Part shown: piece by piece, positions 23,463-44,289 of the stretch
How positions within the stretch are numbered: the stretch's first letter is position 1
Layout of the letters: every line of letters starts with the position of its first letter
Source of the DNA: Longimicrobiales bacterium
Lineage (GTDB): Bacteria > Gemmatimonadota > Gemmatimonadetes > Longimicrobiales > Gaopeijiaceae
Assembly (NCBI GenBank): GCA_965202985.1
Contig: CBDBCF010000001.1
Coordinates: forward strand, 480,001 to 544,000
DNA: 64,000 nucleotides
Reading direction: 5' to 3'
Made by a program: the position numbers and the translations under genes
The notes under the pieces: model-generated
What the model saw: the letters and a program-made list of their open reading frames with translations, nothing else
What the model was told of the DNA's origin: nothing
Database searches by the model: none

Positions 23463-24709
23463 GGCTGGGCCGCCCAGATCACCAGTTGAAGCTCGACATC
23501 GCCGACCAGCGTGTACTCCGGCAACCGGCCCGACAACTCCCGGCTCTCGCGGCGAATGACCGGCACGCCGTCGCCCCTTCGGTCCATCAAGCGCTTGCGG
23601 CCCACATCCGCGCCGGGGGGCACCGGGCATCGCGCCAGCAACGACACGAGAAGCTCGTTCCGGCAGGACTGGACGAGGTGCAGGCTGTCGGCGTCCAAGC
23701 CGTTGGCCAAGCCGCCGGGGACATGCAGCTCCAGGCGGTCCCCGAAGATGTGCATCCGAATTCGCTCCCCGTGCCTCGAATAGTCGCGATGAGCCACCGC
23801 GTTGACCAACGCCTCGAAGACGGCCCGTTCGCTGAACTGCGGGCGCTCGGACCGCGCCGTCCGCTTGGTGGCGCGCACGAGCATGTTGCGGCGAACGAAG
23901 TGCAGCGCCTCCTCGACTTGCTGATCGATCGGTCCGCTGATGTCGCGGGCGTCGCTCTGATAGACGGCGTCCGTTCGTTTGCCGGCGTAGCTGACCGCCT
24001 GAATGTAGGCGTGCGGAAGCCACTTCTGCGGTTCGCACGTGCAGAGTAGAACGCCTGCAAGCGTCAGTCGCGCACGTCCGTCCGAGTCGTCAGTCACAAT
24101 TCTCATCTTGCGCAGGACGGCCAGCTCCTCTTCGGGCGTCTCGGGGACGGCTTCCGGATCGCCTTCCACGAAACGACGCGTCAGCGAGTAGTGCAGGTCG
24201 CCCGGCGTCGTGTCGGGCACTACCGATCCATCGAAGCGCAACACCCGACTCTGGCTTCGTTCCTGGAAGAGCCGCGCCAGGGCCTCCGGCGAAAGTTCCC
24301 GCTTTGAACTCCCTAGGCGGCGGAAGTACCCGCCCGGGCTCTTGTGGACGAAGAGGCTGTTCGGCACGTCTACGCGGACTACAGGCACCAAGCGTCCCTC
24401 TGCATTGGGCGCCTCCTGCTTCAAGATATCGGCGTCCAGCGGCGGCTTCACCAAGTCGTTGCAGATTTCGCGAATCCATGTCTCCACGACGTCAAGGTGC
24501 TCGAGTGGGATGCCCTCGGCCAAGCGCGTCTTGTCGTCCACGCCCAGCACCAACGTTCCGCCTTGGGCGTTGGCCAGCGCCGCCAGCTCGTCGGCGACGC
24601 TGTTCCGGCTGGGTTCCTTGACACGTTTTCCGGACACCCGAACGCGCTTCAGCTCCAAGACGGAGTCTTCGCCGAAGCGAAGGCGGCGAATCAGCTCTGC
24701 ATCGTTCAT
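23459..24709 (-). CDS. AlbA_2 (Schlafen-like) domain + HATPase_c_4 protein
   Basis: GEDSVLELK...ALANAQGGTLVLGVDD; EALVNAVAHRDY; PGGL; MDRRGDG. Confidence 0.9.
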   Translation of the reverse strand: MNDAELIRRLRFGEDSVLELKRVRVSGKRVKEPSRNSVADELAALANAQGGTLVLGVDDKTRLAEGIPLEHLDVVETWIREICNDLVKPPLDADILKQEAPNAEGRLVPVVRVDVPNSLFVHKSPGGYFRRLGSSKRELSPEALARLFQERSQSRVLRFDGSVVPDTTPGDLHYSLTRRFVEGDPEAVPETPEEELAVLRKMRIVTDDSDGRARLTLAGVLLCTCEPQKWLPHAYIQAVSYAGKRTDAVYQSDARDISGPIDQQVEEALHFVRRNMLVRATKRTARSERPQFSERAVFEALVNAVAHRDYSRHGERIRMHIFGDRLELHVPGGLANGLDADSLHLVQSCRNELLVSLLARCPVPPGADVGRKRLMDRRGDGVPVIRRESRELSGRLPEYTLVGDVELQLVIWAAQP

Positions 24710-25359
24710 GAGCGGAGCAAGTCCAGCTGGTTCGTCGCGGCGGTAGTCGAGCCGGAGTGGTTCGCGTAGGTGTTCCAGTCCGGCGTGTAGTCCCGAGCTT
24801 GGTTGCCCCAGGCGAACCAGCCTTCCCGCGTGCCCCGGGCGAAGAGTTCCAGGTAGGGCCCCGGACTGCACGCCTCGATGATGTCGTACTGCTCGTCGGG
24901 CTTGCGGCTGTGTTCGCGCTTCCGAGAGCGGATCATGTTCTCTTGGCGCCGGCCAGGCTGCAGCGTGCGTGCATTTCGTCCCCTGACCCCGAAAAGGATC
25001 ACTTCGGTCACGTTCCTGAAGTAGAATCCGACCCCCCTGCGATCGGGGCCGCCGTCCTTCCTGATCTTGTACCAAACCAGGTTCGTCTTGTACTCGAACC
25101 CCCAGCACTTCATGACCTTGAGGCCGTACGGCAGGAGCGCGTTGGGAATCCACAGATACAAGTGGGCCGTGTCCGCGACGACGGAGCGAACGGGCAACTC
25201 CTCGATCTCCTCGAAGGACATCGTCGAATAGCGCGACAATCGCTTGTGCTCGGGCGCCACCTTGCCCGTCTTGTTGTGGAAGCGCCAGGGTGGATCCGCT
25301 AGAACGGTGGCGAACCTCTTCCCGCCTACGGACTGGACGAAGTGGTCATGCGGCGACAT
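24706..25359 (-). CDS. MT-A70 family N6-adenine methyltransferase
   Basis: LADPPW, HLYLW, WGFEYKTN, G-GFYFRNVTE, HSRKP, YLELFAR. Confidence 0.93.
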   Translation of the reverse strand: MSPHDHFVQSVGGKRFATVLADPPWRFHNKTGKVAPEHKRLSRYSTMSFEEIEELPVRSVVADTAHLYLWIPNALLPYGLKVMKCWGFEYKTNLVWYKIRKDGGPDRRGVGFYFRNVTEVILFGVRGRNARTLQPGRRQENMIRSRKREHSRKPDEQYDIIEACSPGPYLELFARGTREGWFAWGNQARDYTPDWNTYANHSGSTTAATNQLDLLRS

Positions 25360-25496
25360 TGGTCAACGATAGGCTACCGGGGTCCGCGTGTCCATGGATC
25401 CAGCCTGGGCGCGATTTCGAGGTCCTGAAATGTCCCCGTCGATGTCCCGATTTCGGGGCTCGGGTGTCCATGCCCGAATCCCGCGCCCCACATGAC

Positions 25497-26627
25497 TCAA
25501 GGATACCCATCCAGAAGGTTGTTTTCCCAGAGCTGGCCGGTCGAGCATTCCCCCAGCCACTCGCGGTAGTCTTCCGACTTCGGCCGTTGCACCGTCGTCG
25601 CGTCCCCGTCGAGACGGAGTACGAGCAGCTTTTCAAGTTCGAAGACGTCGACGAGCAGGGACGACTGCGTGGCGACGATGATCTGTCGTAGGGCGGACAA
25701 GGACCTGATCATGCCGCCGACCAGCGAGACTGCCGCTGGGTGAAGGCCCAGCTCGGGCTCGTCGAGCAGAATGACGCTGGGCAGCAGGTCCAGGGGAAGA
25801 TTGAGAAGCGTCATCAGGGCGAATGTCCGCAACGAAGCGTCCGACGCAAGGTGCGCGCCGCGGGTCTTGTCGGAGCCCTTGGCCTTCCAGCGCAGCGTCA
25901 GGCGGTCGCGGTGCTCCTCGATGGCGAAGCGGTCGAACGGGGGCAGGACCCGACCGACGTAATTGCAGATGCTCTCGTACCGCCGCATGTCGTTCCTTTC
26001 CAGGAAGTGCAACACGGCAGCCAAGTTGCCGGCGTCGCAGCGGAGGCGTCGCCGGTCGCTGGCGTCCGTGGGCGTCCTGATGCGGGAACGGTTGGAGGTG
26101 TCGTGGAAGTGGTAGCATGAGCAGCCGCCAAGAGTGGCGACGATTGCCCGTGCCGCGGAACCTGCGTCGTCGGCGTCGTCCGAGCCCGCGTCGCCCACGT
26201 CAAGGAGCTCGGCCTCGGCGTGCCCGGAACCCAGTTCGTGCCAGGGCGAGCCGCTCGGCTGGTCCCCATTGCGGAGGCGAAAGCGCTCGTCGGCGAACTC
26301 CAGGCGGTCGGGGTTCGCGTGTGTCAGGGTCAAATGGTAGTCGACCCGGCCCGCCGTCGTGCGCAGCGCAAGATTGGCCTCCATGCGACGTGTGCGCCGG
26401 CGTCCGCCGAACAACTGGTCGTCCGCGCCGCCTTGCGCGTGCACGAACCTTGCCAGCCCACCCGACGGCGGCGTCAGCATCCGGCCGACCATCTCAAGGA
26501 AGCGGACGAGGTTCGACTTGCCCGCGCCGTTCGGGCCGATCATCACGGTCGGGTTGGGCAGGTCCTCGACCTTGAAGTCGGCCAGCGAGCGGAAGCCCTT
26601 GACGTGGATCGACTCGATGGCGTTCAT
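25497..26627 (-). CDS. ABC-type AAA ATPase (AAA_21/AAA_15-like)
   Basis: Walker A GPNGAGKS, Walker B ILLDEPELGLHP, ATQS; signature reads ASDASLR. Confidence 0.9.
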   Translation of the reverse strand: MNAIESIHVKGFRSLADFKVEDLPNPTVMIGPNGAGKSNLVRFLEMVGRMLTPPSGGLARFVHAQGGADDQLFGGRRRTRRMEANLALRTTAGRVDYHLTLTHANPDRLEFADERFRLRNGDQPSGSPWHELGSGHAEAELLDVGDAGSDDADDAGSAARAIVATLGGCSCYHFHDTSNRSRIRTPTDASDRRRLRCDAGNLAAVLHFLERNDMRRYESICNYVGRVLPPFDRFAIEEHRDRLTLRWKAKGSDKTRGAHLASDASLRTFALMTLLNLPLDLLPSVILLDEPELGLHPAAVSLVGGMIRSLSALRQIIVATQSSLLVDVFELEKLLVLRLDGDATTVQRPKSEDYREWLGECSTGQLWENNLLDGYP

Positions 26628-26671: not shown

Positions 26672-27907
26672 TTACGGCTGCGTCGTCACGGCGGCGGTCG
26701 AGGGCGCGAAGCTGTGCACTACTATGGTGGCAACGTCCAGTTCGTCGGTATGCACGGTCAGCAGGTAGTCGGGGCCGGCCTCGGCCAGCGAGTGGTCTGG
26801 CATCGGCGGCAGGCGGCACATGAATTCGCCGGTCGGGGAGAAGACCATGGCGCCCGACTCTGGTTCTGGTCGGCCCGGACGCCGGTAGGGAAACACGAAC
26901 AGATGGCCGGCGTTGCCCATCAGAAGGCCGCTGAACGCCGGAAACTGGTCCGCTGCGGGCCGCCTCGGGCTCAGCGTCGGACCGGCGGTCCGGCTCGGCT
27001 CGCTTCTCCAGGCGTTCTGCGCGCGATAGTCCTCTCGGTAGGCGTCGAGGTCGGCGCCGCTCACCGACCTGTCGCCGGCATTCCATCGCACGATCGTGGT
27101 CAGCCGGTACTCGGAGTCCAGGACGCGGACCTCGGCCTCGCGGCCCGTGCCCATGGCGATGTGGTCGCCTCGGGCGCTGACGCTGGCCCTGCTGTCGAAC
27201 ACCGGGCCGATGAAGAGATCGGGCCACGTCGAATCGCGGATCTGTCCCAACCGCCGATTGGGGAGCCCAGCCAAGACGCCGACGAGCTTGCCGTCCGGGT
27301 AGTGCGCCTCCACGACCAAGGTGTCGGGGGTGTCGAACGATCTGCTGCTTCCTCGCGTCACCCAGGCGGTCACAAGCGTACCGTTCGAGAGCACTCCGCC
27401 GCCTCTGGACGGATTGGGATAGATGGGGTCCAGCTCGACGGCACGGCTCCAGGCGCCGTCCGCGGCAAACACGTTGTAGCGCCAGGGCCGGTAGTCGCCG
27501 ACCCAAAGCGTGTCGCCGGGGCGAACCCATACGTACCAGGCGTTCCTGAACTCGCCGGGGCCGTCGCCCGAGCGCCCCAAGGACCGGAGATGTTCGCCCG
27601 TCTCGTCAAAGATGCGGACTTGGTCCACCGTCGGATCGACTACGGCGACCGAACCGTCCGACAGCCGTGCAGCGCCGGCGACGTCGCCGAACAGGTGGGC
27701 CGGATCGTCCTCCCTGTTGCCGACGACGAGGAGCGGTTCCTCGCCAACCGCGCACATGGCGTCTGACGCGGACGGGTCGCTGACGACGACCCGCACTCCG
27801 GCGCTGTCCACGGCGACGACGGGACTGGATGGGGCGCTTTCGCACGAGGCGAAGGCGGCGGCCAGCAGCGACAGGGCGAGCTTGCGGGGCAAGGGAGTTT
27901 CGTTCAT
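26672..27907 (-). CDS. 6-bladed beta-propeller lipoprotein (copy 2)
   Basis: Lipobox AFASC; visibly collinear with and highly similar to copies 1 and 3. Confidence 0.85.
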   Translation of the reverse strand: MNETPLPRKLALSLLAAAFASCESAPSSPVVAVDSAGVRVVVSDPSASDAMCAVGEEPLLVVGNREDDPAHLFGDVAGAARLSDGSVAVVDPTVDQVRIFDETGEHLRSLGRSGDGPGEFRNAWYVWVRPGDTLWVGDYRPWRYNVFAADGAWSRAVELDPIYPNPSRGGGVLSNGTLVTAWVTRGSSRSFDTPDTLVVEAHYPDGKLVGVLAGLPNRRLGQIRDSTWPDLFIGPVFDSRASVSARGDHIAMGTGREAEVRVLDSEYRLTTIVRWNAGDRSVSGADLDAYREDYRAQNAWRSEPSRTAGPTLSPRRPAADQFPAFSGLLMGNAGHLFVFPYRRPGRPEPESGAMVFSPTGEFMCRLPPMPDHSLAEAGPDYLLTVHTDELDVATIVVHSFAPSTAAVTTQP

Positions 27908-28092
27908 GGTGGGACCTGCTTGATTTGGCGGATGGTCCAACGACTGCCTTGGGAACCGCCAGGAGCGTGGCATCGAAGTTGGCGTAGCGCAAGCGCAAGC
28001 GGGCGAAGCGCCGGAGCCGACGTCCGCGTCGCGTCGCGCGGGTTCAATGCAGACGGCGGCTTGCTCGGGGCGGTCACCCGGCTACTGCGTCG

Positions 28093-29307
28093 TCACGGCC
28101 GCGGTCGGGGGGCGAAGCTGTGCACTACTACGGTGGGAACGTCCAGTTCGTCCAAGTGCACGAGCAGCAGGTAGTCGGGGCCGGCCTCGGCCAGCGAGTG
28201 GCCTGGCATCGGCGGCAGGCGGCACAGGAACTCGCCGGTTGGGGCGAAGACCATGGTGGTGGGCCTTGATTGGCCCTGACGCGGGTAGGGAAACACGAAC
28301 AGATGGCCGGCGTTGCCCATCAGAAGGCCGCTGAACGCCGGAAACTGGTCGGCCACGGGTCGCCTCGGGCTAAGCATCGGGCCGTCAAGCCGACTCGGTT
28401 CGCTTCTCCATGCTTCCGACGCCCGATATTCCTCTCGGTAGGCGTCGACGTCGGCGCCGCTCACCGACCTGTCGCCCGCGTTCCATCGGACGATCGTGGT
28501 CAGTCTGTATGCGGAGTCCAGGACGCGGACCTCGGCCTCGCGGCTCGTGCCCATGGCGATGCGGTCGACTCGGGCGGTGACGCTCGCTCGGCTGTCGAAC
28601 ACCGGGTGGATGAAGAGGTCGGGCCACGACGAATCCTCGATCTGGCCCGCCCGTTGATTGGGGAGCCGAGCCAAGACGCCGACGAGCTTTCCATCCGCGT
28701 CGTGTGCTTCCACGATCAAGGTGTCGGGCGTGTCGAACGAGCTTTCCCTTGCTGGCGTCCTCCTGGCGGCGACAAGCAGGCCGGTCGAGAGCACTCCGCC
28801 TCCGCGAGACGGGTTTTGATAGATGGGGTCCAGCTCGACGGCGCGGCTCCAGGCGCCGTCCGCCGCAAACACGTTGTAGCGCCATGGCCGGTGGTCGCCG
28901 ACCCAGAGCGTGTCTCCTGGGCGAACCCATACGAGCCAAGCGTTCTTGAACTCGCCGGGGCCGTCGCCCAGTCGCCCCAAGGACCGGAGATGTTCGCCCG
29001 TGTCGTCGAAGACGCGGACTTGGTTCACCGTCGGATCGACCACGGCCACGGAACCGTCCGACAGCCGGGCCGCGCCTACCACGCGGCCGAAGAGGTGGGC
29101 CGGGTCGTCCTCCCGGTCGCCGACGACAAGTAGCGGCTCTTCGCCGACCGCGCACGTGGCGTCCGACGCGGACGGGTCGCTGACGACGACCCGCACTCCG
29201 GCGCTGTCCACGGCGATGACGGGACTGGACGGGGCGCTCTCGCACGAGGCGAAGGCGACGGCCAGCAGCGACAGGGCGAGCTTGCGGGGCACGGGAGTTT
29301 CGTTCAT
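28093..29307 (-). CDS. 6-bladed beta-propeller lipoprotein (copy 3)
   Basis: Tandem paralog of copy 2, including a shared ~45-bp upstream sequence (gacctgcttga(t/c)ttggcggatggtccaacgactgccttgg). Confidence 0.85.
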   Translation of the reverse strand: MNETPVPRKLALSLLAVAFASCESAPSSPVIAVDSAGVRVVVSDPSASDATCAVGEEPLLVVGDREDDPAHLFGRVVGAARLSDGSVAVVDPTVNQVRVFDDTGEHLRSLGRLGDGPGEFKNAWLVWVRPGDTLWVGDHRPWRYNVFAADGAWSRAVELDPIYQNPSRGGGVLSTGLLVAARRTPARESSFDTPDTLIVEAHDADGKLVGVLARLPNQRAGQIEDSSWPDLFIHPVFDSRASVTARVDRIAMGTSREAEVRVLDSAYRLTTIVRWNAGDRSVSGADVDAYREEYRASEAWRSEPSRLDGPMLSPRRPVADQFPAFSGLLMGNAGHLFVFPYPRQGQSRPTTMVFAPTGEFLCRLPPMPGHSLAEAGPDYLLLVHLDELDVPTVVVHSFAPRPRP

Positions 29308-29479
29308 GGTGGACCTGCTTGACTTGGCGGATGGTCCAACGACTGCCTTGGAACATAGCACCGGCGTCGGATTGAGGTAGCGTGCCCGCTGCCGCCCGCT
29401 GGGGGGTTGCCCATCGCACGCTGGCAATCCTATCTTTCCGTCGTCCTCCTACTACCCCCAATCACCCGAGCTAGTAGCC

Positions 29480-31552: not shown

Positions 31553-34500
31553 TCAACCACCCTCCCGCAACCACTCCGCCGACAGCGCCTCCGCCTGCTC
31601 CAGCACGGTGTCGGTGGCGGCCGCCTGCTTGTCGGGCGGGTAGCCGTGCTTGCGTAAGATGCGCTTGACGTACACGCGGAGCCGGGCGCGCACGTCTTCT
31701 CGCACGGTCCAGTCGATCGTGGTGTTGCTTCGCACGGTCTTGACGAGCTCCTGGGCTATCGCGCGCAACGTTTCGTCGCCGAGCACCTTCACGGCGCTGT
31801 CGTTGGTCTCCAGGGCGTCGTAGAACGCAAGTTCGTCGTCGGACAGGCCCAGGTCCTCGCCGCGACGGTCGGCCTCGCGCATCTCGCGGGCCAGGCCGAT
31901 CAGCTCCTCGATCACCTGGGCGGTCTCGACGGCGCGGTTTCGGTAGCGCCGCAGCGTCTGCGCCAGCATCTCGGCGAACGAGCGGCTCTGCACGACGTTC
32001 TTTCGGCCGCGCGCGCGCAGGTCGTCCTCCAGGAGCTTGCGCAGCAGGTCCACGGCCAAGTTGCGCTGGGGCATGTCCCGCACCTCGGCCAGGAAGTCTT
32101 CGGAGAGGATCGACACGTCGGGCTTGGGCAGGCCGGCGGCGGCGAAGATGTCGATCACGCCCTCGGGCGCCACGGCCCCGGCGATGATCTGGCGGACGGC
32201 GTGGTCCAGCTCCTCGGCGGGTCGGGCCGAGCCGGGCGCGCGCTTGGCCAGGGAGTTGCGCACGGCCTGGAAGAAGGCGATGTCGGCGCGGATGCCCAGC
32301 GCGTAGTCGTGGGGCACGGCCAGGGCGAACGCCTTCGACAGGGCGTCCACGGCGTCGGCCAGCCGGTCCTTGCCGTTCTCCTGGGCCAGGACGTGCTCCT
32401 GGGCGGCGGGCAGGAGCGCCAGGCGCTGGGCGGGCGCGCCCTCGGCCCACGGGGACCGGTCGAAGCCGTGGAAGATGCCGCAGCACACCTCGTAGTGCTT
32501 GCGCAGCGCGTCCACGGCGGCGTCCTGATCGATGGTCGGGCGCCCCTTGCCGCCGCTGCTCGCGTAGGTGGCCAGCGCCTCCCTCAGCTCGGTCGCAAGG
32601 CCCAGGTAGTCCACCACCACGCCGCCGGGCTTGTCGCGGAAGACGCGGTTCACGCGGGCGATCGCCTGCATCAGGCCGTGGCCCCGCATGGGCTTGTCCA
32701 CGTACATGGTGTGTAGCGACGGGGCGTCGAAGCCGGTGAGCCACATGTCGCGCACCAGCACGATGCGGAACGGGTCGGCCGGGTCGCGGAACCGCTTGGC
32801 CAGCGCCTCCCGCCGCCCCTTGCTGCGGATGTGCCGCTGCCACTCCGGCGGATCGGAGGCCGAGCCCGTCATGACGACCTTGATCGCGCCCAGGCCGTCC
32901 TCTTCCCCGTGCCACTTGGGGCGCTTCGCCGCGATCTTGTCGTACAGGTCCACGCAGATGCGGCGGCTCATGCACACGACCATCGCCTTGCCCTCCAGCG
33001 CTTCGCACCGCTGCTCGAAGTGCCGCACCAAGTCGTCCGCGACCAGCTCCAGTCGCTTGTCGGTCCCGACGACGGCCTCCTGCTGCGCCCAGCGCGCCCT
33101 CAGCTTCTCCTTGCGAGCGACTTCCTCGCCTTCGGTGACCTCTTCGAACCGCGGGTCGATCCGGGGCCGCTCGTCCTCGTCCAGGGCCAGCTTGACCAGC
33201 CGGCTCTCGTAGTAGATCGGCACGGTGGCGCCGTCGTCCACCGCGCGCTGGATGTCGTAGACGCTGATGTGGTCGCCGAAGACGTTCCGCGTGTTGCGGT
33301 CGGTCTGCTCGATGGGCGTCCCGGTGAAGCCGATGAACGACGCGGCCGGCAGGGCGTCCCGCATGTGCGCCGCGAAGCCGTCGATGAAGTCGTACTGGCT
33401 GCGATGGGCCTCGTCGGCGATCACCACGATGTTGCGCCGCGCCGACAGCAGCGGATGGCGGTCGCCGTGCCGCTCGGGGAAGAACTTCTGGATCGTGGTG
33501 AAGACGACCCCGCCCGCCTCCCGGTCCAGCTTCCTGCGCAGGTCCGCCCGGTCGCTGGCCTGCTCCGGCGGCTGGCGCAGCAGGTCCTGGCACCGCGAGA
33601 AGGTGGCGAAGAGCTGCTCGTCCAGGTCGTTCCGGTCGGTGAGGACGACCAGCGTCGGGTTCCTCATGGCCGGCTCGCGGACGATCCGCCCCGCGTAGAA
33701 CGCCATCGTCAGACTCTTGCCGGAACCCTGCGTGTGCCACACCACGCCGACGCGACGGTCGCCGGGGGCCGGCGGCTTCGGACCGGCGTCCAGTGCGCGA
33801 CGGTCCAGCACCTCCACCAGCTCGGCGACGATGCGGACCTGCCCTTCGTGCTCGGGCGCGAGGACGATCGGCCGGAACCGGGGGTTGCGGGGCCTCAGCA
33901 CGACGCGGGCGTGACGCCAGCCGTCGGCAGCGCCGCCTTCCGAAGCCTTCTCGCTCTCGTACCGCTTGACGGTGTAGCGCTCGCCGGTCTCCGGGTCGAT
34001 CTCGTCCCGCAGCTCGACCAGCACCGTCTTGCCCTGGCGCGTGCCCTCGACCGGCGCGGCGAAGAGGCACCACGCGCCGTCGGGGACCTGCGGCTCCATG
34101 GACTGCCCGACGACCTGGGCCACGAACATGCCCCGCCGGAGCGGGCGTCGCGGGCAAACCTTCGTCCACTCGAAGTCGTCCGCCGGAAAGCTCTGCGGGT
34201 CGCCGAACGCGCCCGCCGCGGCCTTGAGCGGAACCAGCGGGGCGGTCGTGACCCAGCGGGTTCGGGGGTCGGGCGGGACGACGACGGGGCGGAACGGCCG
34301 CACGGGCGGGGCCTCGTCCTGGGCGGCCTGCATTCGCGTTGCGCGCAAGGTCTCGCCGACGGCCACTTGAACGGCGTGATACTGGTGGTACCCCGCGATC
34401 TTCTTGGCCAGTTCCCCGCTCCCGTCGTCCTCGAAGACGACGAAGTCCCGGATCATGGCGAGCAGGTGCTCGGGCGCGCACAGCCCTTCGATCGCGACTT

Positions 34501-35191
34501 GAAGCTGAAGCGCCGACGGCTTGGCTTCCTTGTCCCCGGCGACGGTGCGCCACGGCTTGAACCACTCCCAGCCGCCGGTGAGCGTGCCGAACCGGGCCTC
34601 CACGCCGTCCGACACGCCCATGAACTCGTTCATGGCGAAGAGCGTCGGCAGCTCGGCCTTGTAGGTCTGGAGCTGGCGCCAGGCAGTGTGGACCGTGGCG
34701 TCGGGGTCGCTGGGGTGCTTGAGCTCGATCACGCCCAGCGGGAGCCCGTTGACGAACAGCACGATGTCCAGGCGACGCGTGTGCTTGCCCTCGACGACGG
34801 TGAACTGGTTGACGGCCAGCCAGTCGTTGCTGGCCGGGTGGTCGAAGTCGAGGACTCGGGCGTGGTGGCCGCGGATTCGGCCGGATGCGTCGCGGTACTC
34901 GACGGGGATGCCGTCGATCAGCATCCGGTGAAAGGCGCGGTTCCGGGCGTCGAGGGTGGGGCCGGCGGGGTGGATGAGCTTGCGGAGGGCGTCTTCGTGG
35001 GCTTTGCTGGGGAGGTCCGGGTTGAGGTGGGAGATAGCGGCCTGAAGGCGGGACCCCAAGACGACATCGCTGTGATCCGAGCGCTCCGACATGGAACCAC
35101 CGGGGGCGATGTCGGGCCCCTCGGCGATCGCCCAGCCGGAGTGGCCGAGCCACTCGAGTGCGACATGCTCAATATCGGATTCGTCGATCAA
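31553..35191 (-). CDS. hsdR: Type I restriction enzyme R subunit with inserted S24 (LexA-like) peptidase domain
   Basis: [17 protein letters not shown] nuclease motif, [40 protein letters not shown]-terminal ELAFYDAL; ~170-aa insertion at ~33805-34320. Confidence 0.96.
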
Positions 35192-35440
35192 GAACACCCT
35201 TCCCGCCACGGAAAGCAAGGCGTTGGCTTACGATCTGGCAATCTAGCCGGATGTCCAATTGGGAACCACTGGCGTCCCCTCAGGATCACCCGGTACCCTT
35301 CGCTCCCCTGCCACCGCAGGAAACATCCGCTTCAACTGCGAACCACGGTTGACCGAATCGCCATGTCCTGCCACCGTTAACGACCATCACGGGCTTGCCG
35401 CCCGAGAATCTCTCAATACCGTACCCCAGGACCTACGAGC

Positions 35441-36943
35441 ATGCCTACCACCACTTCCCCTACCACACCCGAGCCCCGATCCCACCGACGATGGCAGGAC
35501 TACGAGCAAGAAGTATACGAGGCCCTTCGTAGGTGCTACCCGGATGCCGACATCGTCCGCGACGCAAAGATACTAGGACGTAATTCCAAGAGAAAGCGCC
35601 AAGTGGATGTACTCATCCGAAGCAATGTCGCTGGCTTCTCAATCACCATCGCCGTCGAAGCTAAGTGTCTGTCTCGAAAGATTCATGTCAAAGACGTGGA
35701 GTCGTTCGAAGGAATGATGAGAGATATTGGTGCCGAACACGGGCTACTGATAACTGAGGCAGGATTTTCTCAGGCAGCCATCGACCGTGCCCGAAATGGC
35801 GACTTGAAACTTGAGCTCGATATTCTGAGCATCGCAGAACTGACAAGCTACCAAGCAGAACACGGGCTTCCGTATTCCGGCAAATACGGTGTCAGCCTGT
35901 TTCCGCCCTTCGGATGGGTCGTTGATATTCGTCAGGTACTGCCATGTTGTGCTACTCTGTACCCGCGAGGCATGACCTTGGAAAAAGCTCAGGAAAAGAA
36001 ATCGTGGATGTACGTAAATTTTTGGCATACGACCGATGATCCTATCTCTTCGCTCACTGCGTTAGTGGAACAACAAAACCGCGAAATGACATTGTCGTAT
36101 AATGGCCTGCAGGTGTCAACTCACGAGTCGCCGCCCATGAGAAGCGATGGCATGAAGACTCACATACGAGTTGCTACCTGGCATGATTTGGATGGCAGCG
36201 AGGTTACGGGGTTTGTAGAGTTCGACGGCTTCATCTTCTACGCGGTATTGTTTACCAATGACGACTTTGTAGACAGAAACACCGCCAAACTTGCATACAT
36301 GCTGGCACATGTCCAGCCACTTACAATCGATTTCGACAACACAGAATTGATTGCCGCTCTCGCAGAACAAGCCGAGACGGAAGACGACATGGTCGCCAAG
36401 GCAACCTGCCATTACCGACTATCGTGGTTGTATCATCAAATGGATGATAGGGAAAACGCACTGAAGCACAGGAGGCTTTGTTGGCATTACAATCCAGAAC
36501 ATTATGGAAACATCGTCCCGCTGATCAAAGATGAACTGGAGACTGGTCATCTCATGAACGCCGAAAAGTGTGCGCTCGATTTCGTTTCTCGAGCACCAAC
36601 GAATCCAACAGTAATGCAAGACCTGCTACACGCTTACTGCTCACGTGACAGTTTTATAGACAGTTTTCACAAACTTGTCAGTAAGCTGATGGCCCGGCAT
36701 CGCGGTGAAGCGCTTGCGAATGTACTCTACCATTATGGAATCTATTTTGCAAACGAAGGCGATATGAAGAATTTCCGACAATACTTGACACAGGCGCGAG
36801 ATCTGTTTATCGATTGCAACGTCCATCCCGAAGTCGTGCAGCACATTGACGAGCTATTGCGGACCGTTCCGGGAATTTTTCGAGGAGAAAAAGGACCCTA
36901 CTTGAATTTTGTGAAAAACGTGGGCCCTCCTTATCCCGAGTAA
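35441..36943 (+). CDS. Mrr-like restriction endonuclease domain fused to C-terminal TPR-like repeats
   Basis: WQDYEQEV...RQVDVLI...AVEAK...GLLITEAGFSQAA; helical C-terminus; markedly lower GC. Confidence 0.8.
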   Translation: MPTTTSPTTPEPRSHRRWQDYEQEVYEALRRCYPDADIVRDAKILGRNSKRKRQVDVLIRSNVAGFSITIAVEAKCLSRKIHVKDVESFEGMMRDIGAEHGLLITEAGFSQAAIDRARNGDLKLELDILSIAELTSYQAEHGLPYSGKYGVSLFPPFGWVVDIRQVLPCCATLYPRGMTLEKAQEKKSWMYVNFWHTTDDPISSLTALVEQQNREMTLSYNGLQVSTHESPPMRSDGMKTHIRVATWHDLDGSEVTGFVEFDGFIFYAVLFTNDDFVDRNTAKLAYMLAHVQPLTIDFDNTELIAALAEQAETEDDMVAKATCHYRLSWLYHQMDDRENALKHRRLCWHYNPEHYGNIVPLIKDELETGHLMNAEKCALDFVSRAPTNPTVMQDLLHAYCSRDSFIDSFHKLVSKLMARHRGEALANVLYHYGIYFANEGDMKNFRQYLTQARDLFIDCNVHPEVVQHIDELLRTVPGIFRGEKGPYLNFVKNVGPPYPE

Positions 36944-37152
36944 TCTGCCATGGGAAAGAGGGACTCCAATTGTCGAGCGACAACCAAGGTGAGACGGTAG
37001 CGACAACCAAGATGAGACTGTCGGAGGCGGCCGTGATCTGATGTCGAGGGGTTCGGACGCGGGCTTGGTCCTGTCGTTCGACGGCGGGCCGTCGGTGATC
37101 GTGGAACGAGGTCCAGCTAGTTCAGTGTCTTCCCGAACGAGGAGGAGCGCTG

Positions 37153-38799
37153 ATGGCGGGCCGGCACGTGAACGATGGCCAGGCGAGGCAGTACATGAGG
37201 CGCCGGAAGAACGGTCGTGCGGTGGAGACGGCGGCGGCGAAGGCGGGGTTCGGCAGGGCGACGGGGTACAGGCTGGAGGCGGACGCTCGACTGCCGTCGG
37301 CGAAGCGGAAGCGGCGGGGCAGCAGGCGGCCGGACCCGTTGGGCGGGCTGTTCGAGCGCGTGGCGCTGCCGCTGCTCGAGCGGAACCCGGGTTTGCGGGC
37401 AGTGGCGGTCTTCGAGGAGTTGCGGAGGCTGCATCCCGAGCTGCCGGCGGGCACGCGGCGGACGGTCGAGCGGCGTGTGCGGGAGTGGAAGGCGCTGCAC
37501 GGTCCGGAGCGGGAGGTGGTGTTCGCGCAGAAGCACCGTCCGGGTCGTCGGGGCTACTCGGACTTCACCGCCATGGCGAAGCTGGGGGTGACGGTGGCGG
37601 GCGAGCCGCTGCGGCATCTGCTGTATCGGTTCCGGCTGCCGTACTCGGGCTTCGAGCACGCTCGCGTGGTGCTGGGCGGCGAGAGCTGGACGGCGCTGGC
37701 GGAGGGGTTGCAGGAGGCGCTGTGGGCGCTGGGCGGCGCGCCGGCCGAGCATCGGACGGACAGCTTGTCGGCAGCGTTCGAGAACCTGTCGAAGGAAGCG
37801 GCGGAAGACCAGACGCGCAGCTACGAGACGCTGTGCGCCCACTACGGGATGACGCCGACGCGCAACAACCGGGGCCGGGCGCACGAGAACGGGGTGGTCG
37901 AGAGCAGCCACGGCCACTTCAAGCGGGCACTGGCCGACGCGCTGATGCTGCGGGGCTCGAGGGAGTTCGAGTCGGTGGAGGCGTACCGCGCTTTCGTGGG
38001 CGGCGTGGTCGCTCGCCGCAACGCGCGCCGGAGCGCGGAGCGGGTCGAGAAGGAAGCCAAGGCGCTGCGGCCGCTGCCGGGCGAGCGGGTGCAGGACTGT
38101 CGCGAGACGCGGGTGCGGGTCACGCGGTCGGGCGGCTTCACGCTGGGCAAGGTGTTCTACACGCTGCCGTCGCGCATGATCGGCCACGTGCTGACGGCGC
38201 GCGTCTACGACGACCGCATCGAGCTGTATTTGGGCGCGAAGCGCTGCGACGTGCTGCCCCGCGTGCGGCCGGGCAAGGGCAAGCGGGCGCGCAACGTCAA
38301 CTACCGCCACGTGATCCGGTCGCTCCAGCGCAAGCCGATGGCGTTGAAGGACTGGGTGCACCGCGACCAGCTCTTCCCCCGCGACGCCTACCGCAGAGCC
38401 TACGACGCGGTCGTGGCCAAGCACGGCGACCGCAGAGCGTGCGCCGTCGCCGTCGCCCTGCTCGCGCTGGCCCACGAACAGGGCTGCGAGCGCGCGCTGG
38501 CCGAGCGCATCGACGACATCCTCGACGCCGGCGGCATCCCCGACCCCAAGGCGCTCGCACGCGAGTTCGCACCGCCCGAGCCCGGCGTCCTCGACATCGC
38601 GCCTCGTGTGCGCGAAGGTTCGCTGGACCGCTACGACGGCCTCTTCGGCGTCCGCAACGGCGACGGCCCCGCCGAAGGACCGGCCCCCGACGGCGCCCGC
38701 CGCATGGAAGGAGACGCTCGACGAGCCCCAAGCAGCCCTTCGTCGTGGACGACGCCGAGGTGGACCGCATGCTCAAGGAACTGCGCATGCCCACCATGA
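37153..38799 (+). CDS. istA: IS21 transposase IstA
   Basis: RRPDPL, W-ALHG-EREV-F-Q, SDFT, GGAPAEHRTDSLSAAF, AHENG-VES-HGHFK. Confidence 0.93.
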   Translation: MAGRHVNDGQARQYMRRRKNGRAVETAAAKAGFGRATGYRLEADARLPSAKRKRRGSRRPDPLGGLFERVALPLLERNPGLRAVAVFEELRRLHPELPAGTRRTVERRVREWKALHGPEREVVFAQKHRPGRRGYSDFTAMAKLGVTVAGEPLRHLLYRFRLPYSGFEHARVVLGGESWTALAEGLQEALWALGGAPAEHRTDSLSAAFENLSKEAAEDQTRSYETLCAHYGMTPTRNNRGRAHENGVVESSHGHFKRALADALMLRGSREFESVEAYRAFVGGVVARRNARRSAERVEKEAKALRPLPGERVQDCRETRVRVTRSGGFTLGKVFYTLPSRMIGHVLTARVYDDRIELYLGAKRCDVLPRVRPGKGKRARNVNYRHVIRSLQRKPMALKDWVHRDQLFPRDAYRRAYDAVVAKHGDRRACAVAVALLALAHEQGCERALAERIDDILDAGGIPDPKALAREFAPPEPGVLDIAPRVREGSLDRYDGLFGVRNGDGPAEGPAPDGARRMEGDARRAPSSPSSWTTPRWTACSRNCACPP

Positions 38800-39089
38800 A
38801 GGACATGTGGCGGCCGTTCGCCGACCGGGCACAGCGCGAAGGCTGGTCCCACGACCGCTACCTCGCCCAGCTGGCCGAACAGGAACTCGCCGACCGGGCG
38901 CGCCGACGCTTCGAGCGCCACCGCGCCGAGGCCAAGCTGCCCCCCGGCAAGTCGCTCGACAACTTCGACTTCGGCCGCCTGCCCGGACTGTCCGAACGCC
39001 TGGTCCGCGTCCTCGCCAACGGAGGCGACTGGATCGACGACGGCCACAACGTCGTCGTCCTCGGCCCGCCCGGCACCGGCAAGAGCCAT
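38721..39089 (+). pseudogene. istB: IS21 helper ATPase IstB, truncated just after Walker A
   Basis: LKELRMP...EGWS...AKLPPGKSLDNFDF...NVVVLGPPGTGKSH then unrelated sequence; expected start codon reads ACG. Confidence 0.85.
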
Positions 39090-39910
39090 GCGGGCGGTCG
39101 TCGTGGGCGACCACCGCGGCGCGGGCGATCGGCTGCTGGAGAATCGGGAGTTCCAGCGGTCAGCGCGCATTGGGGCTTCCGCATCCGGGCGTGCAGAGCA
39201 GGTCGGGCGAAGACGAAGGGAAGGTCGAGCGGCCGATCAGCTACGTCCGCAGCAGCTTCTTCTACGGTCGGGAGTTCGTCTCCGACGACGATCTGAACGC
39301 TCGTGCTCGCCGCTGGCTCGACACGGTGGCCAACGTTCGCGTTCACGGCACGTTGAAGCAGCGTCCGTGGTCCGCTTCGAGGACGAGCGGGGCCGGCTCC
39401 TGCCGTTGGCGGGGCGGCCCTACCGCTTGGTCGTCCCGGTCGCGGCTCGGCAGGCGGCGCCGGAGTCGGGCGGTCGCGTCGTGGCGGTGGAGCGGCGGTC
39501 TCTGGCCGAGTACGCCAAGATCGCGGAGGCGTCGTCGTGAAGGCGGTGTCGCGCAGAGACCGGATCGCGGAGATGCTGGCGGACTTGAAGATGCCGGGCG
39601 CGCTCGAAGCGCTTGCCGACATGTTGGCCCGCGTCGACGGTGGCGCTGCGACAGCGGCCGAAGCGATCGAGGAGCTGCTGGCGGTGCAGACCGTGTTGCG
39701 CAACAGCCGTCGGCTGGCCACGGTGATACGGTCGAGCCGTACGGCACGCTGTCCGATCTCGTCGAGTCGCTCGACGAAGCTCAGGCCGCCGGCCGCCTCA
39801 AATAGCGGCTCAAGACGCTGACGCACCCGTCGTTGCTGGTGGTCGACGAGATCGGCTTACTTGCCGGTGAGCCGGAGCGCAGCGACGCTGCTCTTCCCAG
39901 CTGATCATGC
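39088..39910 (+). pseudogene. Second IS21-family remnant (istA 3' fragment and internally deleted istB)
   Basis: Frameshifted HWGFRIRAC / KGKVERPISYVR-SF / WLDTVANVRVHGT, then LADLKMPGALEAL...LLVVDEIG with a deletion and an in-frame stop. Confidence 0.85.
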
Positions 39911-40081
39911 TAGCGCTCCACGTCGTGGAACCTCCGGCCGCTGGCGTCGTTCGCGAACATCACGCCCTCGAATCGCCCGCCCATGAAGTCCGGCCGCCTG
40001 CCTGGCGTTGACAATGGTGCTCGATGACGCCACCTTCCGTGACCCACCATCGATGTCGTCTCAGAAACGAGGGCTAGGTTC

Positions 40082-40499
40082 ATGGTCGCGAAGCGGCGAG
40101 AAGACGCTCCTGACATCCACGATCAGTACAGAGCACCCATGATCGCCCTGTGCGATGTAGCCGAGTATGAATTTCCCATCAGCTCCTATGAGACCCATCA
40201 GCTCCTATGAGATTCGAGAACTGGTCTCTCTTTATGAATACGAAGTCGCGTACCGCTGTGCAGAACTCGAGGATAAAGGATACTTAGTAACTAGCGAGAT
40301 CCAGTCGTCATTGTCGCAGGACGTTTCGCCGACGATTGTCGTCAAGCGCATTACAAGCTATGGACGGGACTACGTTCTCGTCGTGTCAAACCCGAAACGA
40401 TGGCCGAAAGTTAAGAAATGGATGGCCAGCTACGGTCTTCCTGCTGGTCAGGTATTTTCCAACCTAATCTTCAAACTGTTTGAATCAGCTAACAGATAG
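40082..40499 (+). pseudogene. DUF2513-like winged-helix protein frameshifted by a 19-bp tandem duplication
   Basis: CCCATCAGCTCCTATGAGA x2 at 40175-40212; removing one copy joins ATG 40082 to ...YRCAELEDKGYL...RITSYGRDYV...W-KVK; family call tentative. Confidence 0.55.
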
Positions 40500-42034
40500 T
40501 CAATAAGACTGTCCCGAACATTTGCAAGTAGAGTCGACTCGGCGACATTTGCCACTAATGCACTGTAAAGGGGAAACGTCAGTCTCTCGAACATCCTAAT
40601 CGCTTCAATCGGTGGCTGCACGACACGGATGTTAGCAAGTTGTTTCTTGTTGATCGCACCAAACACAGTGCCCATTGCATTATATTCTGTCAATCTATGT
40701 TGGATTTCCCTGATAGCATGAAAAGTAAATGACACGCACCCGGACTGATGGAGTACAGCCGCTAGGCCACGTCCAATACAGCATTTTTCGTATGCAATAT
40801 TCGCATGCCCGACTGGGGCACGAACACTGATTAAGGTACTGCCTGGCTGGGCAATCCGTTTGGGAAGTGAACAATAGACTCTATTCTTCGGAAAATGTAA
40901 GCCAAAATCGGCACTGCCTTGAAAAAATGGTAATCCGACGTCAGATTCGGTCGAGTAAGTGCGGCTAGGTGGAGACTGTCCCATTACGATAGAGTAGCAG
41001 TCACCCAGGCGCTCCACAGTCCATCCTTTCGGAATACTGCCAATATCCACGTTAACAAATTCCTCGGGGAACAAATTTATAATATCTTGCGTGATATAGT
41101 TGATCGATTTTGCTTCTGCGTCATTTCGCATCGGGACAAACCATGCTTTGTATATTGCTTGTATCAGTTCGGTCAGAGTTCCGTCCTGTTGTTGGTTCAA
41201 ATGAATCTTATCATCTAGCTTGGTCAGGACGTGAACATACTGACGCTGTGCAGAAATGGGGGGAATGGAGACACAACAGTCACTTAATGCACTAACGGGT
41301 ACTCTTTGCCTGCCTGATGTTCCTGTCATTTGACCGATAGCATACTGACGTAGCCGACTTGAACGGGCCAAATAGTACGCAAATGTGTCATCTGTCACGT
41401 CCGGTCGTCCGCGTGTGACAATGAACTCGGTAGATCCATGGGCATACTCGGAACCGCCAGACTTCGCACAGTACCGAGCAATCTTGCCGTTTTCGAGAGA
41501 CGGGGTAATGCGCGCCATCAGCGTATCACCACATCGAAAACGTGACCCGGTACCGGCGTATGAACGCTCGCTGGATGATTCTACACAGCGATTGCCAGGC
41601 GTGACGTCAGCCATACCGACAAAAGAATAGAGCTGTCCACGAACAAGAGGTACACTTGGGTTGATCATGACAGCATCACAGTAGCGCATGTCCCTATACT
41701 TGCTTTGCAAACTAGCGCTTCCAGTACTTCGAGAAAGTATCACATGATGTCGGTTGATCACTTTCTGAAAAGCCTCGGGCAAATCTTGCCACACAAGCAC
41801 ATCTACTCGGAACGGAAGATCGCTTTCCGCAAAAGCCTCCTGCAGATCCGATACTTGGTGACGTTGCTTGTGATCGGAAAAGACCACCAAATCGAGATCG
41901 GACTGCGGACGTGCAGTCCAGTTTACACGGGAACCGTAGGCCCATACATCTGTGTCAGGCAAGTACTGCTTGATCAGGTCGAATACTAGACATCTTTCGA
42001 CCGCCGTAAGGTCGATCTCGTGACTCAGTGCCAT
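40448..42034 (-). CDS. hsdS: MNT nucleotidyltransferase fused to type I R-M specificity subunit
   Basis: N-terminal ~100 aa AYGSRVNWTARPQSDLD...FRVDV (GSX10DXD); then two TRDs (GDTLMARITPSLENGK, GTSGRQRV, PPISAQ...LDDKI; IPKGW, MGQSPPS, SVRAPVG, IGRGLAA, RDSL). Confidence 0.93.
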   Translation of the reverse strand: MALSHEIDLTAVERCLVFDLIKQYLPDTDVWAYGSRVNWTARPQSDLDLVVFSDHKQRHQVSDLQEAFAESDLPFRVDVLVWQDLPEAFQKVINRHHVILSRSTGSASLQSKYRDMRYCDAVMINPSVPLVRGQLYSFVGMADVTPGNRCVESSSERSYAGTGSRFRCGDTLMARITPSLENGKIARYCAKSGGSEYAHGSTEFIVTRGRPDVTDDTFAYYLARSSRLRQYAIGQMTGTSGRQRVPVSALSDCCVSIPPISAQRQYVHVLTKLDDKIHLNQQQDGTLTELIQAIYKAWFVPMRNDAEAKSINYITQDIINLFPEEFVNVDIGSIPKGWTVERLGDCYSIVMGQSPPSRTYSTESDVGLPFFQGSADFGLHFPKNRVYCSLPKRIAQPGSTLISVRAPVGHANIAYEKCCIGRGLAAVLHQSGCVSFTFHAIREIQHRLTEYNAMGTVFGAINKKQLANIRVVQPPIEAIRMFERLTFPLYSALVANVAESTLLANVRDSLIDYLLADSNSLKIRLENT

Positions 42035-42441
42035 GATTCCTCGGTCATGGTCTCATAGAGGGCAGTGGCATCTGCTATGAAATCACCGACGACTCCAAGG
42101 CAGTCCTGCGCCTTAGTGATACTGTAATCGTGAGACGTGCCGATACGGTGCTTAGCATAGCCTAGCCATCGCTCCAATGGACCGTCAAGCAAGTCGTTTT
42201 CGAATGCGCACCGGAGGATGGGTTTGGGACTGTTGGGCACATCTGGAATGCCCAGGACGTCTACCAAGTACCGCTTGAGAACCTTCCACATGGAATCGTA
42301 GCAGGTTTCAAAACGATGGACGACTGATTCCGCAATGCCGTCCTGTGTGATCTCAGGCAACGATAGATCGAGCTGGCGATAGTTCGCGTGCTGCTCTCGC
42401 AACCGTGCAAGGGAAAGGCGGAACTTGTCGTAGTTGATCAT
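42025..42441 (-). CDS. HEPN domain protein (HI0074/HepT-like RNase toxin)
   Basis: [20 protein letters not shown]...SPK-ILR-AF...W...RIGTSHDY (RX4HXY). Confidence 0.9.
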
Positions 42442-44036
42442 CGCGGTGCATCGTCGTTCGGAGGAGGGAACCCCAGTTTCGCCAGGTTGGCCTCGATAGC
42501 AACGTCTAGTCGCCGGGCCTCTGCCACCTGTTTATGCCATTCGGCGGTTAGGCGTCGCATCTTCACCTCGAAAGGCTCGTCTTCCTCTTCTTCTTGGGGC
42601 TCCACACCCACGTACCGACCTGGTGTGAGTACATAGTCGTAGCCGCGCACATCCTCCAGCGAGGCTCTCTTACAGAATCCGGGCACGTCTTCGTACTGAT
42701 CCGTTTCAGAGTCGGTGCGCCATGCGTGGTAGGTGCCCGTGATGCGGGATATCTCCTCTCCCGTGAGTGTCCGGTGGGTGCGGTCCACCATTCGCCCGAG
42801 TTTCCGGGCGTCGATGAAGAGAATTTCGCTGTGCCGGTCCCGTGAAAGAAACCACAGGCAGGCGGGAATCGGCGTGGAATAGAAGAGCTGTCCCGGAAGG
42901 GCGACAATGCAGTCCACTAGCTCCGCGGCCACCAATCCCCGGCGAATCGTCAATTCGGCCTTTTGGTGTGAACTCATTGAGCCGTTGGCAAGCACGAAGC
43001 CAGCCACCCCCCTGGGCGACAGGTGGTGGACGATGTGCTGGACCCAAGCGAAGTTGGCGTTGCCCTTGGGCGGGACGCCGAACTGCCACCGTTGATCTTC
43101 CTTCAGCCGATCGCCTCCCCAGTCGCTCACGTTGAAGGGCGGATTGGCGAGAATGTAGTCGGCCTTGAGGTCGGGATGGAGATCGTTGTGGAAGGTGTCG
43201 CCCTGAGCGATCTGACCCTCGATTCCGCGAACTGCGAGATTCATCTTGGCAAGTCCCCACGTCGTGTAGTTGGACTCCTGGCCGTATATGGAGATGTCGG
43301 GCTTGGCCGACGGCTCACCGTTCGCGGCGTGACCTGGCTCGCCGTTTTCGTTCGGCTTCTGGTGCGCCCGTATGAATTCGACGGACTGCACGAACATGCC
43401 CGACGAGCCGCAACAGGGATCGTACACGCGGCCCTGGAAGGGTTCGATCATCTTGACCAGCAAGCGGACAATGCAGTGCGGCGTATAGAACTGGCCGCCG
43501 CGCTTGCCCTCGTCGGCGGCGAAGCGGGAGAGGAAATACTCGTAGATCCGGCCTAGCACGTCCTTCGAGCGGGCGGCCTCGTCACCAACCATGATGTTGC
43601 TCACCATGTCTATAACCTGCCCGAGACGCGCCTGGTCCATAGACTGGCGGGCGTAGTCCTTCGGCAGCACATCCTTCAGTCCCGGATTGTCGCGCTCGAC
43701 GGCGACCATCGAGTCGTCCACCATTCGGCCGATGCCCGGTTGCTTCGCATTGGCTTTCAAGCGCTCCCATCGGGCCTCGGGCGGCACCCAGAAGATGCTC
43801 TTCGCCCGGTACTCGTCCCGGTCCTCTGGATCGGCGTACTCGTCTTCTTCGAGCTTGGCGTGCAACTCCTCGAAGGCGTCGGAGACGTACTTTAGGAAGA
43901 ACAGCCCGAGGACGACATGCTTGTACTCGGCGGCATCCATTGAGCCGCGCAGGGCGTCGGCCATCTTCCACAGCTTGGCCTCGTAGCCGGTCGTGGCGGC
44001 GGAGGTTGGGGGCTTGGCGTGTTGTCGTGCTGGCAT
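42438..44036 (-). CDS. hsdM: Type I R-M methyltransferase subunit
   Basis: [49 protein letters not shown]. Confidence 0.97.
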
Positions 44037-44289
44037 CGATGTGGCCCGATCTTCTGACTTCTGACGTGTCCGAATCGTCAACATTGGCGTTGCCAACCGC
44101 CTCGGTCAAGCCCTGGCTTGGGGGCCGCCGCCACCGCAGGGGCCAAGCGGGAGCCACGGGCATGCCACGCGGGCCGTCCGTCAGGCGGAGGCTTCGCCTC
44201 GCCGACCTCGCCGCGACCGACGCACTCGGCGACACCCGGCGGGCACAGCGACGTCTCCGGCTACGCCCGATTCGGGGACGCGGGACGGG

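Follow-up and report, generated by a model that had tools for sequence, protein, structure and literature searches.

What would a self-cleaving repressor domain do inside a restriction enzyme? This question is raised by a 64,000-nucleotide stretch of a Longimicrobiales genome (Gemmatimonadota; assembly GCA_965202985.1, contig CBDBCF010000001.1, positions 480,001 to 544,000; hereafter, the window), in which hsdR, the gene for the restriction subunit of a Type I restriction-modification system, contains a domain resembling the S24 autopeptidases of LexA and phage lambda cI. The hsdR reading frame runs without interruption over the whole of 31553-35218, and its probable translation start, judged from the sequence, is the TTG at codon 10 (35191), with GGAAGG six bases upstream. 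A PD-(D/E)xK nuclease, Walker A, a DEAH box, a C-terminal domain and a match to the family hidden Markov model identify the protein as a Type I HsdR. Coordinates are collected in Table 1.

An S24 domain in a loop of motor domain 1

A sequence-only reading of this locus had noticed an in-frame insert between AGYHQY and Walker A, where a short linker is found elsewhere, and the spacing comparison bore this out. The distance from YHQ[YF] to Walker A was 218 aa in this HsdR and 203 to 247 aa in 34 insert-bearing HsdRs, whereas 99 close homologues lacking the insert had 40 to 56 aa, with a median of 52. Another 9 rows, in which the Q-motif or Walker A could not be recognised, were left out. The net gain in HsdR is thus ~165 aa. 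The insert-less homologues have a motor 79 to 83% identical to that of this HsdR and are the majority form among alleles; a close one is the HsdR of Geobacter sulfurreducens (P0137). The same reading had placed the insert between nuclease and motor, and here a correction was needed. In the structural model the insert comes after the Q-motif helix (aa 277-300) and before the strand leading into Walker A, and the loop of an insert-less homologue aligns with the short loop of EcoR124I, which puts the insert, by model and alignment, in a loop inside motor domain 1. Low values of the predicted local distance difference test (pLDDT) were found at aa 299-307, 480-488, and 492-499. The model of aa 10-900 had a mean pLDDT of 69 and a predicted template modelling score (pTM) of 0.54, and because it was weak in the second motor domain, we left domain packing uninterpreted. 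An intein or intein-like insert was rejected, as the junctions in the 34 insert-bearing rows are variable linkers without an N-terminal Cys/Ser or a C-terminal His-Asn.

Profile and fold both indicate that the insert is an S24 domain, in agreement with the sequence-only reading. The isolated insert matched Pfam PF00717 with 31.2 bits (E-value 1.9e-7) and the whole protein with 25.1 bits (aa 328-467), the cut-off being 23.3. A model of the domain from an 85-row alignment had a pLDDT of 91 and a pTM of 0.85, and Foldseek matched it to LexA (1jhe, E-value 1.3e-5) and to lambda cI on RecA (8gmu, E-value 1.7e-5). [quoted passage not shown] A single-sequence search of solved structures with the insert gave a chance aquaporin match only, a profile search of them reached LexA and cI at E-values of only 0.04 to 0.8, and no model in NCBIfam or PADLOC covered the insert. 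An alignment search directed at the cI cleavage site matched HTH domains only. The DNA-binding helix-turn-helix (HTH) domain of LexA/cI repressors was not found in this protein; nuclease and Q-motif stand N-terminal of the site instead.

The predicted catalytic residues are strongly conserved. The Ala-Gly, Ser and Lys picked out by the sequence-only reading were exact in position, and Ala334, Ala335, Gly336, Ser373, and Lys418 are invariant in all 35 internal copies, which are 65 to 92% identical to the query. Among the best 150 of 1,739 cluster representatives, Ala335 was kept in 124/133 and Gly336 in 123/133, and Ser and Lys at the counts given in Table 1, against a column median of 59%; xAAG, Ser and Lys occurred jointly in 111 of 129 diverse representatives covering the region. 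The spacing from site to Ser is 38 aa here and 35 in LexA (A84, S119). The core is under purifying selection equal to that on the rest of HsdR, with a ratio of nonsynonymous to synonymous substitution rates (dN/dS) of 0.21 versus 0.28 for the nuclease and 0.18 for the motor (5 genes, non-independent pairs). G+C content at third codon positions (GC3) of the core is 0.94, which is host-like, and a recent foreign insertion was rejected on this ground.

Distribution and history of the insert

Four other Longimicrobiales genomes carry the insert at 83 to 90% identity inside intact hsdR frames, and public-run contigs of 3 studies cross one or the other junction, although each piece covers only part of the stretch; of the four runs with such contigs, three are labelled sponge metagenome. 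An assembly chimera, a possibility that the sequence-only reading had raised, was rejected on these two grounds. Among the runs listed, no RNA run carried the insert sequence. The insert-bearing gene occurs in two of three same-genus genomes, hsdR matches in the other genera of the family are insert-less, and the S24 domain is present in 10 of 401 genomes of the phylum, while internal copies were found under Gemmatimonadota, Planctomycetota, Armatimonadota, and Vicinamibacterales labels. A search of 50,697 phage records with the insert gave no match, and there was one match in plasmids and three in viral contigs. In three relatives, frameshifted or deleted remnants of insert-bearing hsdR are found no more than a few kb away from the intact gene (Table 1), showing repeated duplication and decay in the islands of these relatives.

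A search of long proteins with the insert gave 1,750 matches among 3,339 candidates. The subfamily comprises 1,739 representatives at an E-value of ≤0.001 and 981 at ≤1e-10, the weaker matches possibly including ordinary S24 proteins. The best 120 plus the query were sorted into 35 internal HsdR copies, 84 C-terminal tails, and 2 domains with a further C-terminal extension; for the best 80 of 509 metagenome loci, the corresponding numbers were 1, 78, and 1. Pfam assignments, covering 80 of the 150 representatives, gave as hosts Type IIG/ISP enzymes, other HsdRs, Type III Res-like, McrC-like, HNH, PLD, Schlafen, DUF2075, and DruE-like proteins and five HTH repressors, with many proteins showing S24 only. 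DruE helicases host the domain in 33 of the 80 metagenome loci, and in the fusions that could be assigned S24 lies C-terminal of the nuclease. The sequence-only reading had named other helicases as fusion partners of this S24 subtype, and rightly so; across the many restriction and defence nucleases that bear it, it mostly forms a C-terminal tail. Searches with 10 query proteins found neither recA nor neighbours from the window other than hsdM/hsdS/hsdR beside the best 80 metagenome loci, a dedicated activator gene being possible.

In a quick tree of the S24 domains, the internal copies cluster together (Shimodaira-Hasegawa-like approximate likelihood ratio test 94) with one DruE row inside. 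The insert-bearing HsdR backbones, by comparison, are scattered: a tree of 114 rows requires 10 changes, and strong branches force at least 4 of these. Approximately unbiased tests, on a 44-row subset picked after viewing that tree, rejected a single clade of insert carriers, with p 3e-10 for the nuclease side and p 1e-60 for the motor side. This pattern fits a cassette gained and lost among hsdR alleles, through one insertion with recombination, repeated loss, or both. The same HsdR family also has C-terminal S24 tails, two belonging to a distinct S24 clade with an HTH repressor among its members and four more in metagenome loci; it thus acquired S24 at least two times independently, internally and as a tail. 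Both parts, S24 and HsdR, are known. The internal S24 site in HsdR and the coming and going of the cassette among hsdR alleles appear to be new, as does the combination: we found no description of an S24-HsdR fusion in the literature covered, supplements and subscription papers being outside that coverage. The main text of PMC12458937 mentions none of S24, LexA, peptidase, protease, or SOS, and that of PMC13192584 mentions neither S24 nor peptidase.

Several further members of the subfamily were recorded. A second S24 copy in the host genome (C2:159237-159707) is 56% identical, retains the site, Ser, and Lys, and lies at the C-terminal end of a DruE/ArmC-like helicase-nuclease gene of 1990 aa. 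Five XRE-HTH repressors (P0269, P0292, P0340, P0357, and P0361) belong to the same subfamily at several places on the tree and are possible cassette donors or defence-island regulators. Type IIG/ISP proteins P0113, P0115, P0235, P0248, P0253, and L075 have a domain of ~200 aa after S24, with no Pfam match where scanned, and P0280 (287 aa) consists of two tandem S24 domains, the second with site and dyad and the first apparently without.

Predicted consequences of cleavage

What is observed is an intact S24 domain in a surface loop of motor domain 1 within a complete Type I system. Going by its family, the domain would remain uncut until RecA filaments form on single-stranded DNA (ssDNA) after host DNA damage (RecA*), and Ser373/Lys418 would then cut Ala335-Gly336. 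A cut at 335/336 would give a 36-kDa N-terminal piece of ~326 aa, comprising the nuclease and the Q-motif helix, and a 99-kDa piece. Because the N-fragment keeps the Q-motif helix of motor domain 1, which would remain docked on the motor, the predicted cut is a nick and not a release of the nuclease, and the model suggests that the two pieces should stay associated. The sequence-only reading had given the same ~326-aa fragment, which fits the start at the codon-10 TTG, and had offered two outcomes for it; restriction alleviation is favoured here, whereas release of a free nuclease does not agree with a nick.

The nick would bare LKAAA-COOH, an end resembling a ClpXP degron, on the fragment that holds the nuclease and Gln279, a point absent from the sequence-only reading. 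In LexA-like proteins, C-degrons for ClpXP lie hidden beside the cleavage site (PMC5742171), and a degron screen in Escherichia coli yielded [L/F/Y/W]-[L/A/R]-L-A-A, with the di-Ala critical and Leu or an aromatic residue favoured five residues from the end (PMC10862746). Compared with this E. coli consensus, the would-be C-terminus is Ala-Ala in 119 of 131 representatives and agrees with [L/F/Y/W]xxAA in 113. ClpXP could then engage and degrade the N-fragment. Gln279, invariant in 68 of 68 aligned HsdRs, would be equivalent to Gln276 of EcoR124I, which contacts ATP (PMC4454674), although the pairwise alignment is gapped there, and it is a probable adenine-binding residue. Its loss together with the nuclease would stop cutting and probably translocation too, while HsdM and HsdS would be spared and could restore methylation at sites that repair has unmasked. 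Alleviation in Type I systems takes place after translation, and in clpX-null cells the EcoKI motor is lethal even with its nuclease dead (PMC4231737); the need for post-translational alleviation and the toxicity of an unregulated motor both fit a cut placed after the Q-motif. By analogy, we infer the cleavage, its trigger, and its direction: RecA*-triggered autocleavage followed by ClpXP removal of the nuclease would constitute a built-in restriction alleviation, the best of the readings considered here, though somewhat less likely than not.

RecA is the likely trigger by analogy. In RecA-filament structures, the pocket that receives Phe203 of RecA consists of residues at Ser-8, Ser-6, and Lys-3 relative to the catalytic pair, an acidic patch at Lys-4 to Lys-6 faces a basic patch, and lambda cI is bound as a monomer (PMC9926225). 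The representatives have Phe at Ser-8 in 137/144 and a hydrophobic residue at Lys-3 in 143/149, with conserved acids at Lys-10 and Lys-8, in a longer hairpin. The host encodes RecA (L2 Met-Phe), ClpX, ClpP, and LexA, the last at a separate locus; no tmRNA was found in the host genome, so there was no host tag for comparison. A complex prediction with two host RecA chains, ATP, and the domain (score 0.01, mark 0.32) was not used either way.

We also entertain, with somewhat more doubt, a broader possibility: a mobile SOS sensor-degron cassette, in which repressor-derived S24 has repeatedly been grafted onto restriction and anti-phage nucleases, turning them into RecA*-dependent ClpXP substrates. 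A C-terminal cassette on other restriction or defence nucleases would tag the whole enzyme. Here, since the domain is internal, the degron would end up on the N-terminal nuclease fragment alone; this internal form would move among hsdR alleles at one loop and remove exactly the nuclease and Q-motif.

A number of observations weigh against these two proposals. In EcoKI, alleviation targets translocating complexes individually and does not amount to a general SOS response (PMC4231737), and a global off-switch could be exploited by SOS-inducing phages. The C-terminal placement of most cassettes would equally result if the enzymes had simply been fused to repressor tails. In single-chain IIG/ISP enzymes the methylase would be lost through the tag as well, and P0259, one of the host proteins, has methylase matches but no recognisable nuclease. 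The di-Ala may be conserved for structure alone or inherited, HTH-fused members also having Ala-Ala or Ala-Ser, and the degron rules derive from E. coli and may not be those of this host. A Type III Res-like gene on a viral contig (L054:3274-6432) has an S24 tail with AVAT in place of AAAG, Ser and Lys being kept, and the called proteins of three close relatives begin inside the domain, without site and Ser, as far as protein calls indicate. Residues 325-334 form a strand in the model that would have to be released before cleavage. As for RecA, Ser-6 is Leu in LexA, UmuD, and cI (PMC9926225) but Ala in 130/144 representatives, and the canonical patch is mostly missing, Lys-4 being acidic in 1/149 and Lys-5 in 32/149. 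Both ends of the domain are anchored within a 135-kDa subunit, and on the filament the N-domain of LexA, small as it is, already clashes with neighbouring LexA molecules (PMC9926225). Finally, an S24 protein, IrvR, cleaves without RecA (PMC7101444).

The last point also supports a RecA-independent timer or collision sensor, in which cleavage would be constitutive, or would occur in trans when HsdRs meet or when the motor translocates long, the same degron removing the nuclease in an off-switch with another trigger. Cleavage between subunits in UmuD (PMC9926225), the dependence of EcoKI alleviation on long-lived translocation (PMC4231737), and the altered acidic patch and Ser-6 Leu agree with it as well. 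We consider it unlikely nonetheless, because the aromatic pocket residues are strongly kept, RecA is reportedly used by all other characterised LexA-like proteins, and the cassette is also found on hosts without an identified motor domain (McrC-like, HNH, HTH). Somewhat more unlikely is that the domain is a RecA-filament tether, decoy, or dimerisation module, targeting the enzyme to RecA-ssDNA or competing for it, any cleavage being a tolerated nick without effect on restriction. The two pieces would indeed stay docked through the Q-motif helix after the cut, S24 domains are also dimerisation domains (PMC9926225), and DruE helicases, hosts in 33/80 loci, engage ssDNA-containing intermediates (PMC13192584). 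Binding alone, however, needs neither Ser, Lys, nor Ala-Gly, which are kept in 92 to 98% of representatives compared with the column median.

In the second outcome offered by the sequence-only reading, RecA* arising during phage replication would trigger a cleavage that frees or de-represses the nuclease, leading to abortive infection. UmuD activation is a precedent (PMC9926225), many hosts are defence helicase-nucleases, and removal of a C-terminal tail could relieve inhibition. This on-switch is nevertheless improbable for HsdR: the di-Ala end and a portion of the motor would both remain on the nuclease fragment, the majority insert-less alleles need no activation, and the nuclease and helicase functions of EcoR124I are reported to be coupled. 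Moreover, Type I restriction has to act when DNA enters, before ssDNA accumulates. We give least credence to a passenger or trans-acting protease, that is, a domain that derives from HTH-S24 repressors by shuffling within defence islands and either does no harm in its permissive loop or has a different protein as its target. Its patchy presence in the phylum, the repeated gain or loss on the HsdR tree, the broken remnants near intact genes, the proteins called from inside the domain, and the existence of HTH-S24 members would all be expected of a passenger. On the other hand, the low dN/dS, the host-like GC3, the retention of the cis site together with the dyad, and the spread of internal copies across four taxon labels speak against this reading.

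If the mobile-cassette reading is true, it would represent a general, genetically encoded anti-autoimmunity switch and a case of restriction alleviation with a defined sensor and degron. For EcoKI, it was left open how damaged host DNA is told from foreign DNA and which degron in HsdR is read by ClpXP (PMC4231737). This HsdR appears to carry sensor and degron within its own chain. Apart from UmuD, the S24 proteins characterised so far are known as repressors; if such a domain governs an enzyme from within its motor, SOS signalling would reach to the direct control of enzymes. A cassette that an internal loop tolerates could also be put to use as a degradation tag induced by DNA damage.

The operon, its surroundings, and related systems

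The hsdM and hsdS frames are open and lie 5 kb upstream of hsdR, with an IS21-type element and two other genes between. A HEPN-type gene and an MNT-hsdS fusion lie within the hsdM-hsdS operon (40448-42441, minus strand), and the same gene order was found in the loci L006 and L007 of relatives. The interval between hsdS and hsdR (35441-40499) contains a Mrr-like gene of 499 aa with ~48% GC, a DUF2513 gene, and the IS21-type element, with IstA at 37153-38799 and the next gene apparently in pieces. The same defence-type island encodes at 22776-26627 (minus strand) a dual-OB protein, a Schlafen-AlbA_2/RecG-C protein, an MT-A70 methyltransferase, and AAA ATPases. At 26672-29427 (minus strand) there are two paralogous open reading frames in tandem, of 433 and 444 aa, with near-identical repeats and an N-terminus like that of a lipoprotein, and elsewhere in the host genome, 17 tRNA genes are arrayed in 1.9 kb (C1:1863700-1865556).

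Table 1. Features of the hsdR locus; positions are those of the window unless prefixed by the name of a relative's locus.
Feature	Position	Strand	Basis or note
hsdR, Type I restriction subunit	31553..35218	minus	1221 aa from first TTG; TIGR00348 561.5 bits (cut-off 284.55); PADLOC REase_I 1047 bits
HSDR_N nuclease domain, aa 13-218	34565..35182	minus	Pfam scan
Nuclease residues Asp151, Glu165, Lys167, intact	34766-34768, 34724-34726, 34718-34720	minus	alignment with EcoR124I catalytic motifs
Q-motif (AGYHQY) with the helix after it; begins motor domain 1, on the N-terminal side of the predicted cut	34319..34396	minus	model helix aa 277-300
Gln279 of the Q-motif	34382-34384	minus	
Insert with its two linkers, aa 296-485, in place of a ~25-aa variable loop	33764..34333	minus	spacing comparison; model
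S24 (LexA/cI-type) autopeptidase core, aa 325-471	33806..34246	minus	Pfam, model, structure matches
LKAAA/G, predicted scissile bond Ala335-Gly336 and putative latent Ala-Ala C-degron	34211..34228	minus	
Ala335-Gly336	34211-34216	minus	
Ser373, predicted nucleophile	34100..34102	minus	35/35 internal copies; 141/145 representatives
Lys418, predicted general base	33965..33967	minus	35/35 internal copies; 145/148 representatives
Candidate RecA contacts: Phe365 (Ser-8), Tyr415 (Lys-3), Asp408/Glu410 in the lengthened hairpin	33974..34126	minus	offsets from LexA/UmuD/cI
Walker A (HTQGSGKS)	33713..33736	minus	
DEAH box	33404-33415	minus	
hsdM methyltransferase	42438..44096	minus	HsdM_N, N6_Mtase (Pfam)
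HEPN-type (NTase_sub_bind) gene between hsdM and hsdS	42025..42441	minus	Pfam
hsdS fused to N-terminal MNT nucleotidyltransferase	40448..42034	minus	Pfam
Junction-crossing contig pieces	X1 33479-33972; X2 33965-34573; X5 33801-34667; X6 33959-34584		
Remnant loci in relatives	L005:991-1420 and 12156-12236; L006:4825-5444; L008:11374-14517		

Among known systems, the HsdR of EcoR124I (Type IC; PDB 2w00 and 4beb) has the same domain order, nuclease motifs, and Walker A/B as this HsdR, but is only 15 to 17% identical to it and has a short loop at the site of the 190-aa insert. [quoted passage not shown] It differs from them in being embedded in an enzyme and tethered at both ends without an HTH domain, and in its longer hairpin before Lys, a conserved D-P-[ED]-T-G turn, and Ala at Ser-6; its identity to solved LexA and cI structures is 17 to 24%. 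The C-terminal S24 tails on HsdR, Type IIG/ISP, Type III Res, McrC-like, HNH, DUF2075, and DruE/ArmC-like proteins belong to the same subfamily and have the same site and dyad, the nearest being ~62 to 69% identical to the insert, whereas the domain described here is internal and forms its own cluster in the tree.

[quoted passage not shown] ClpXP-dependent alleviation of EcoKI (Type IA) resembles our proposal in that HsdR is destroyed under DNA-damage conditions and the methylase survives; its degron, by contrast, is unidentified and non-terminal, and recognition needs translocation (PMC4231737). In the HsdR described here, the degron would instead be made by a self-protease that is part of the subunit, RecA* being the likely signal.

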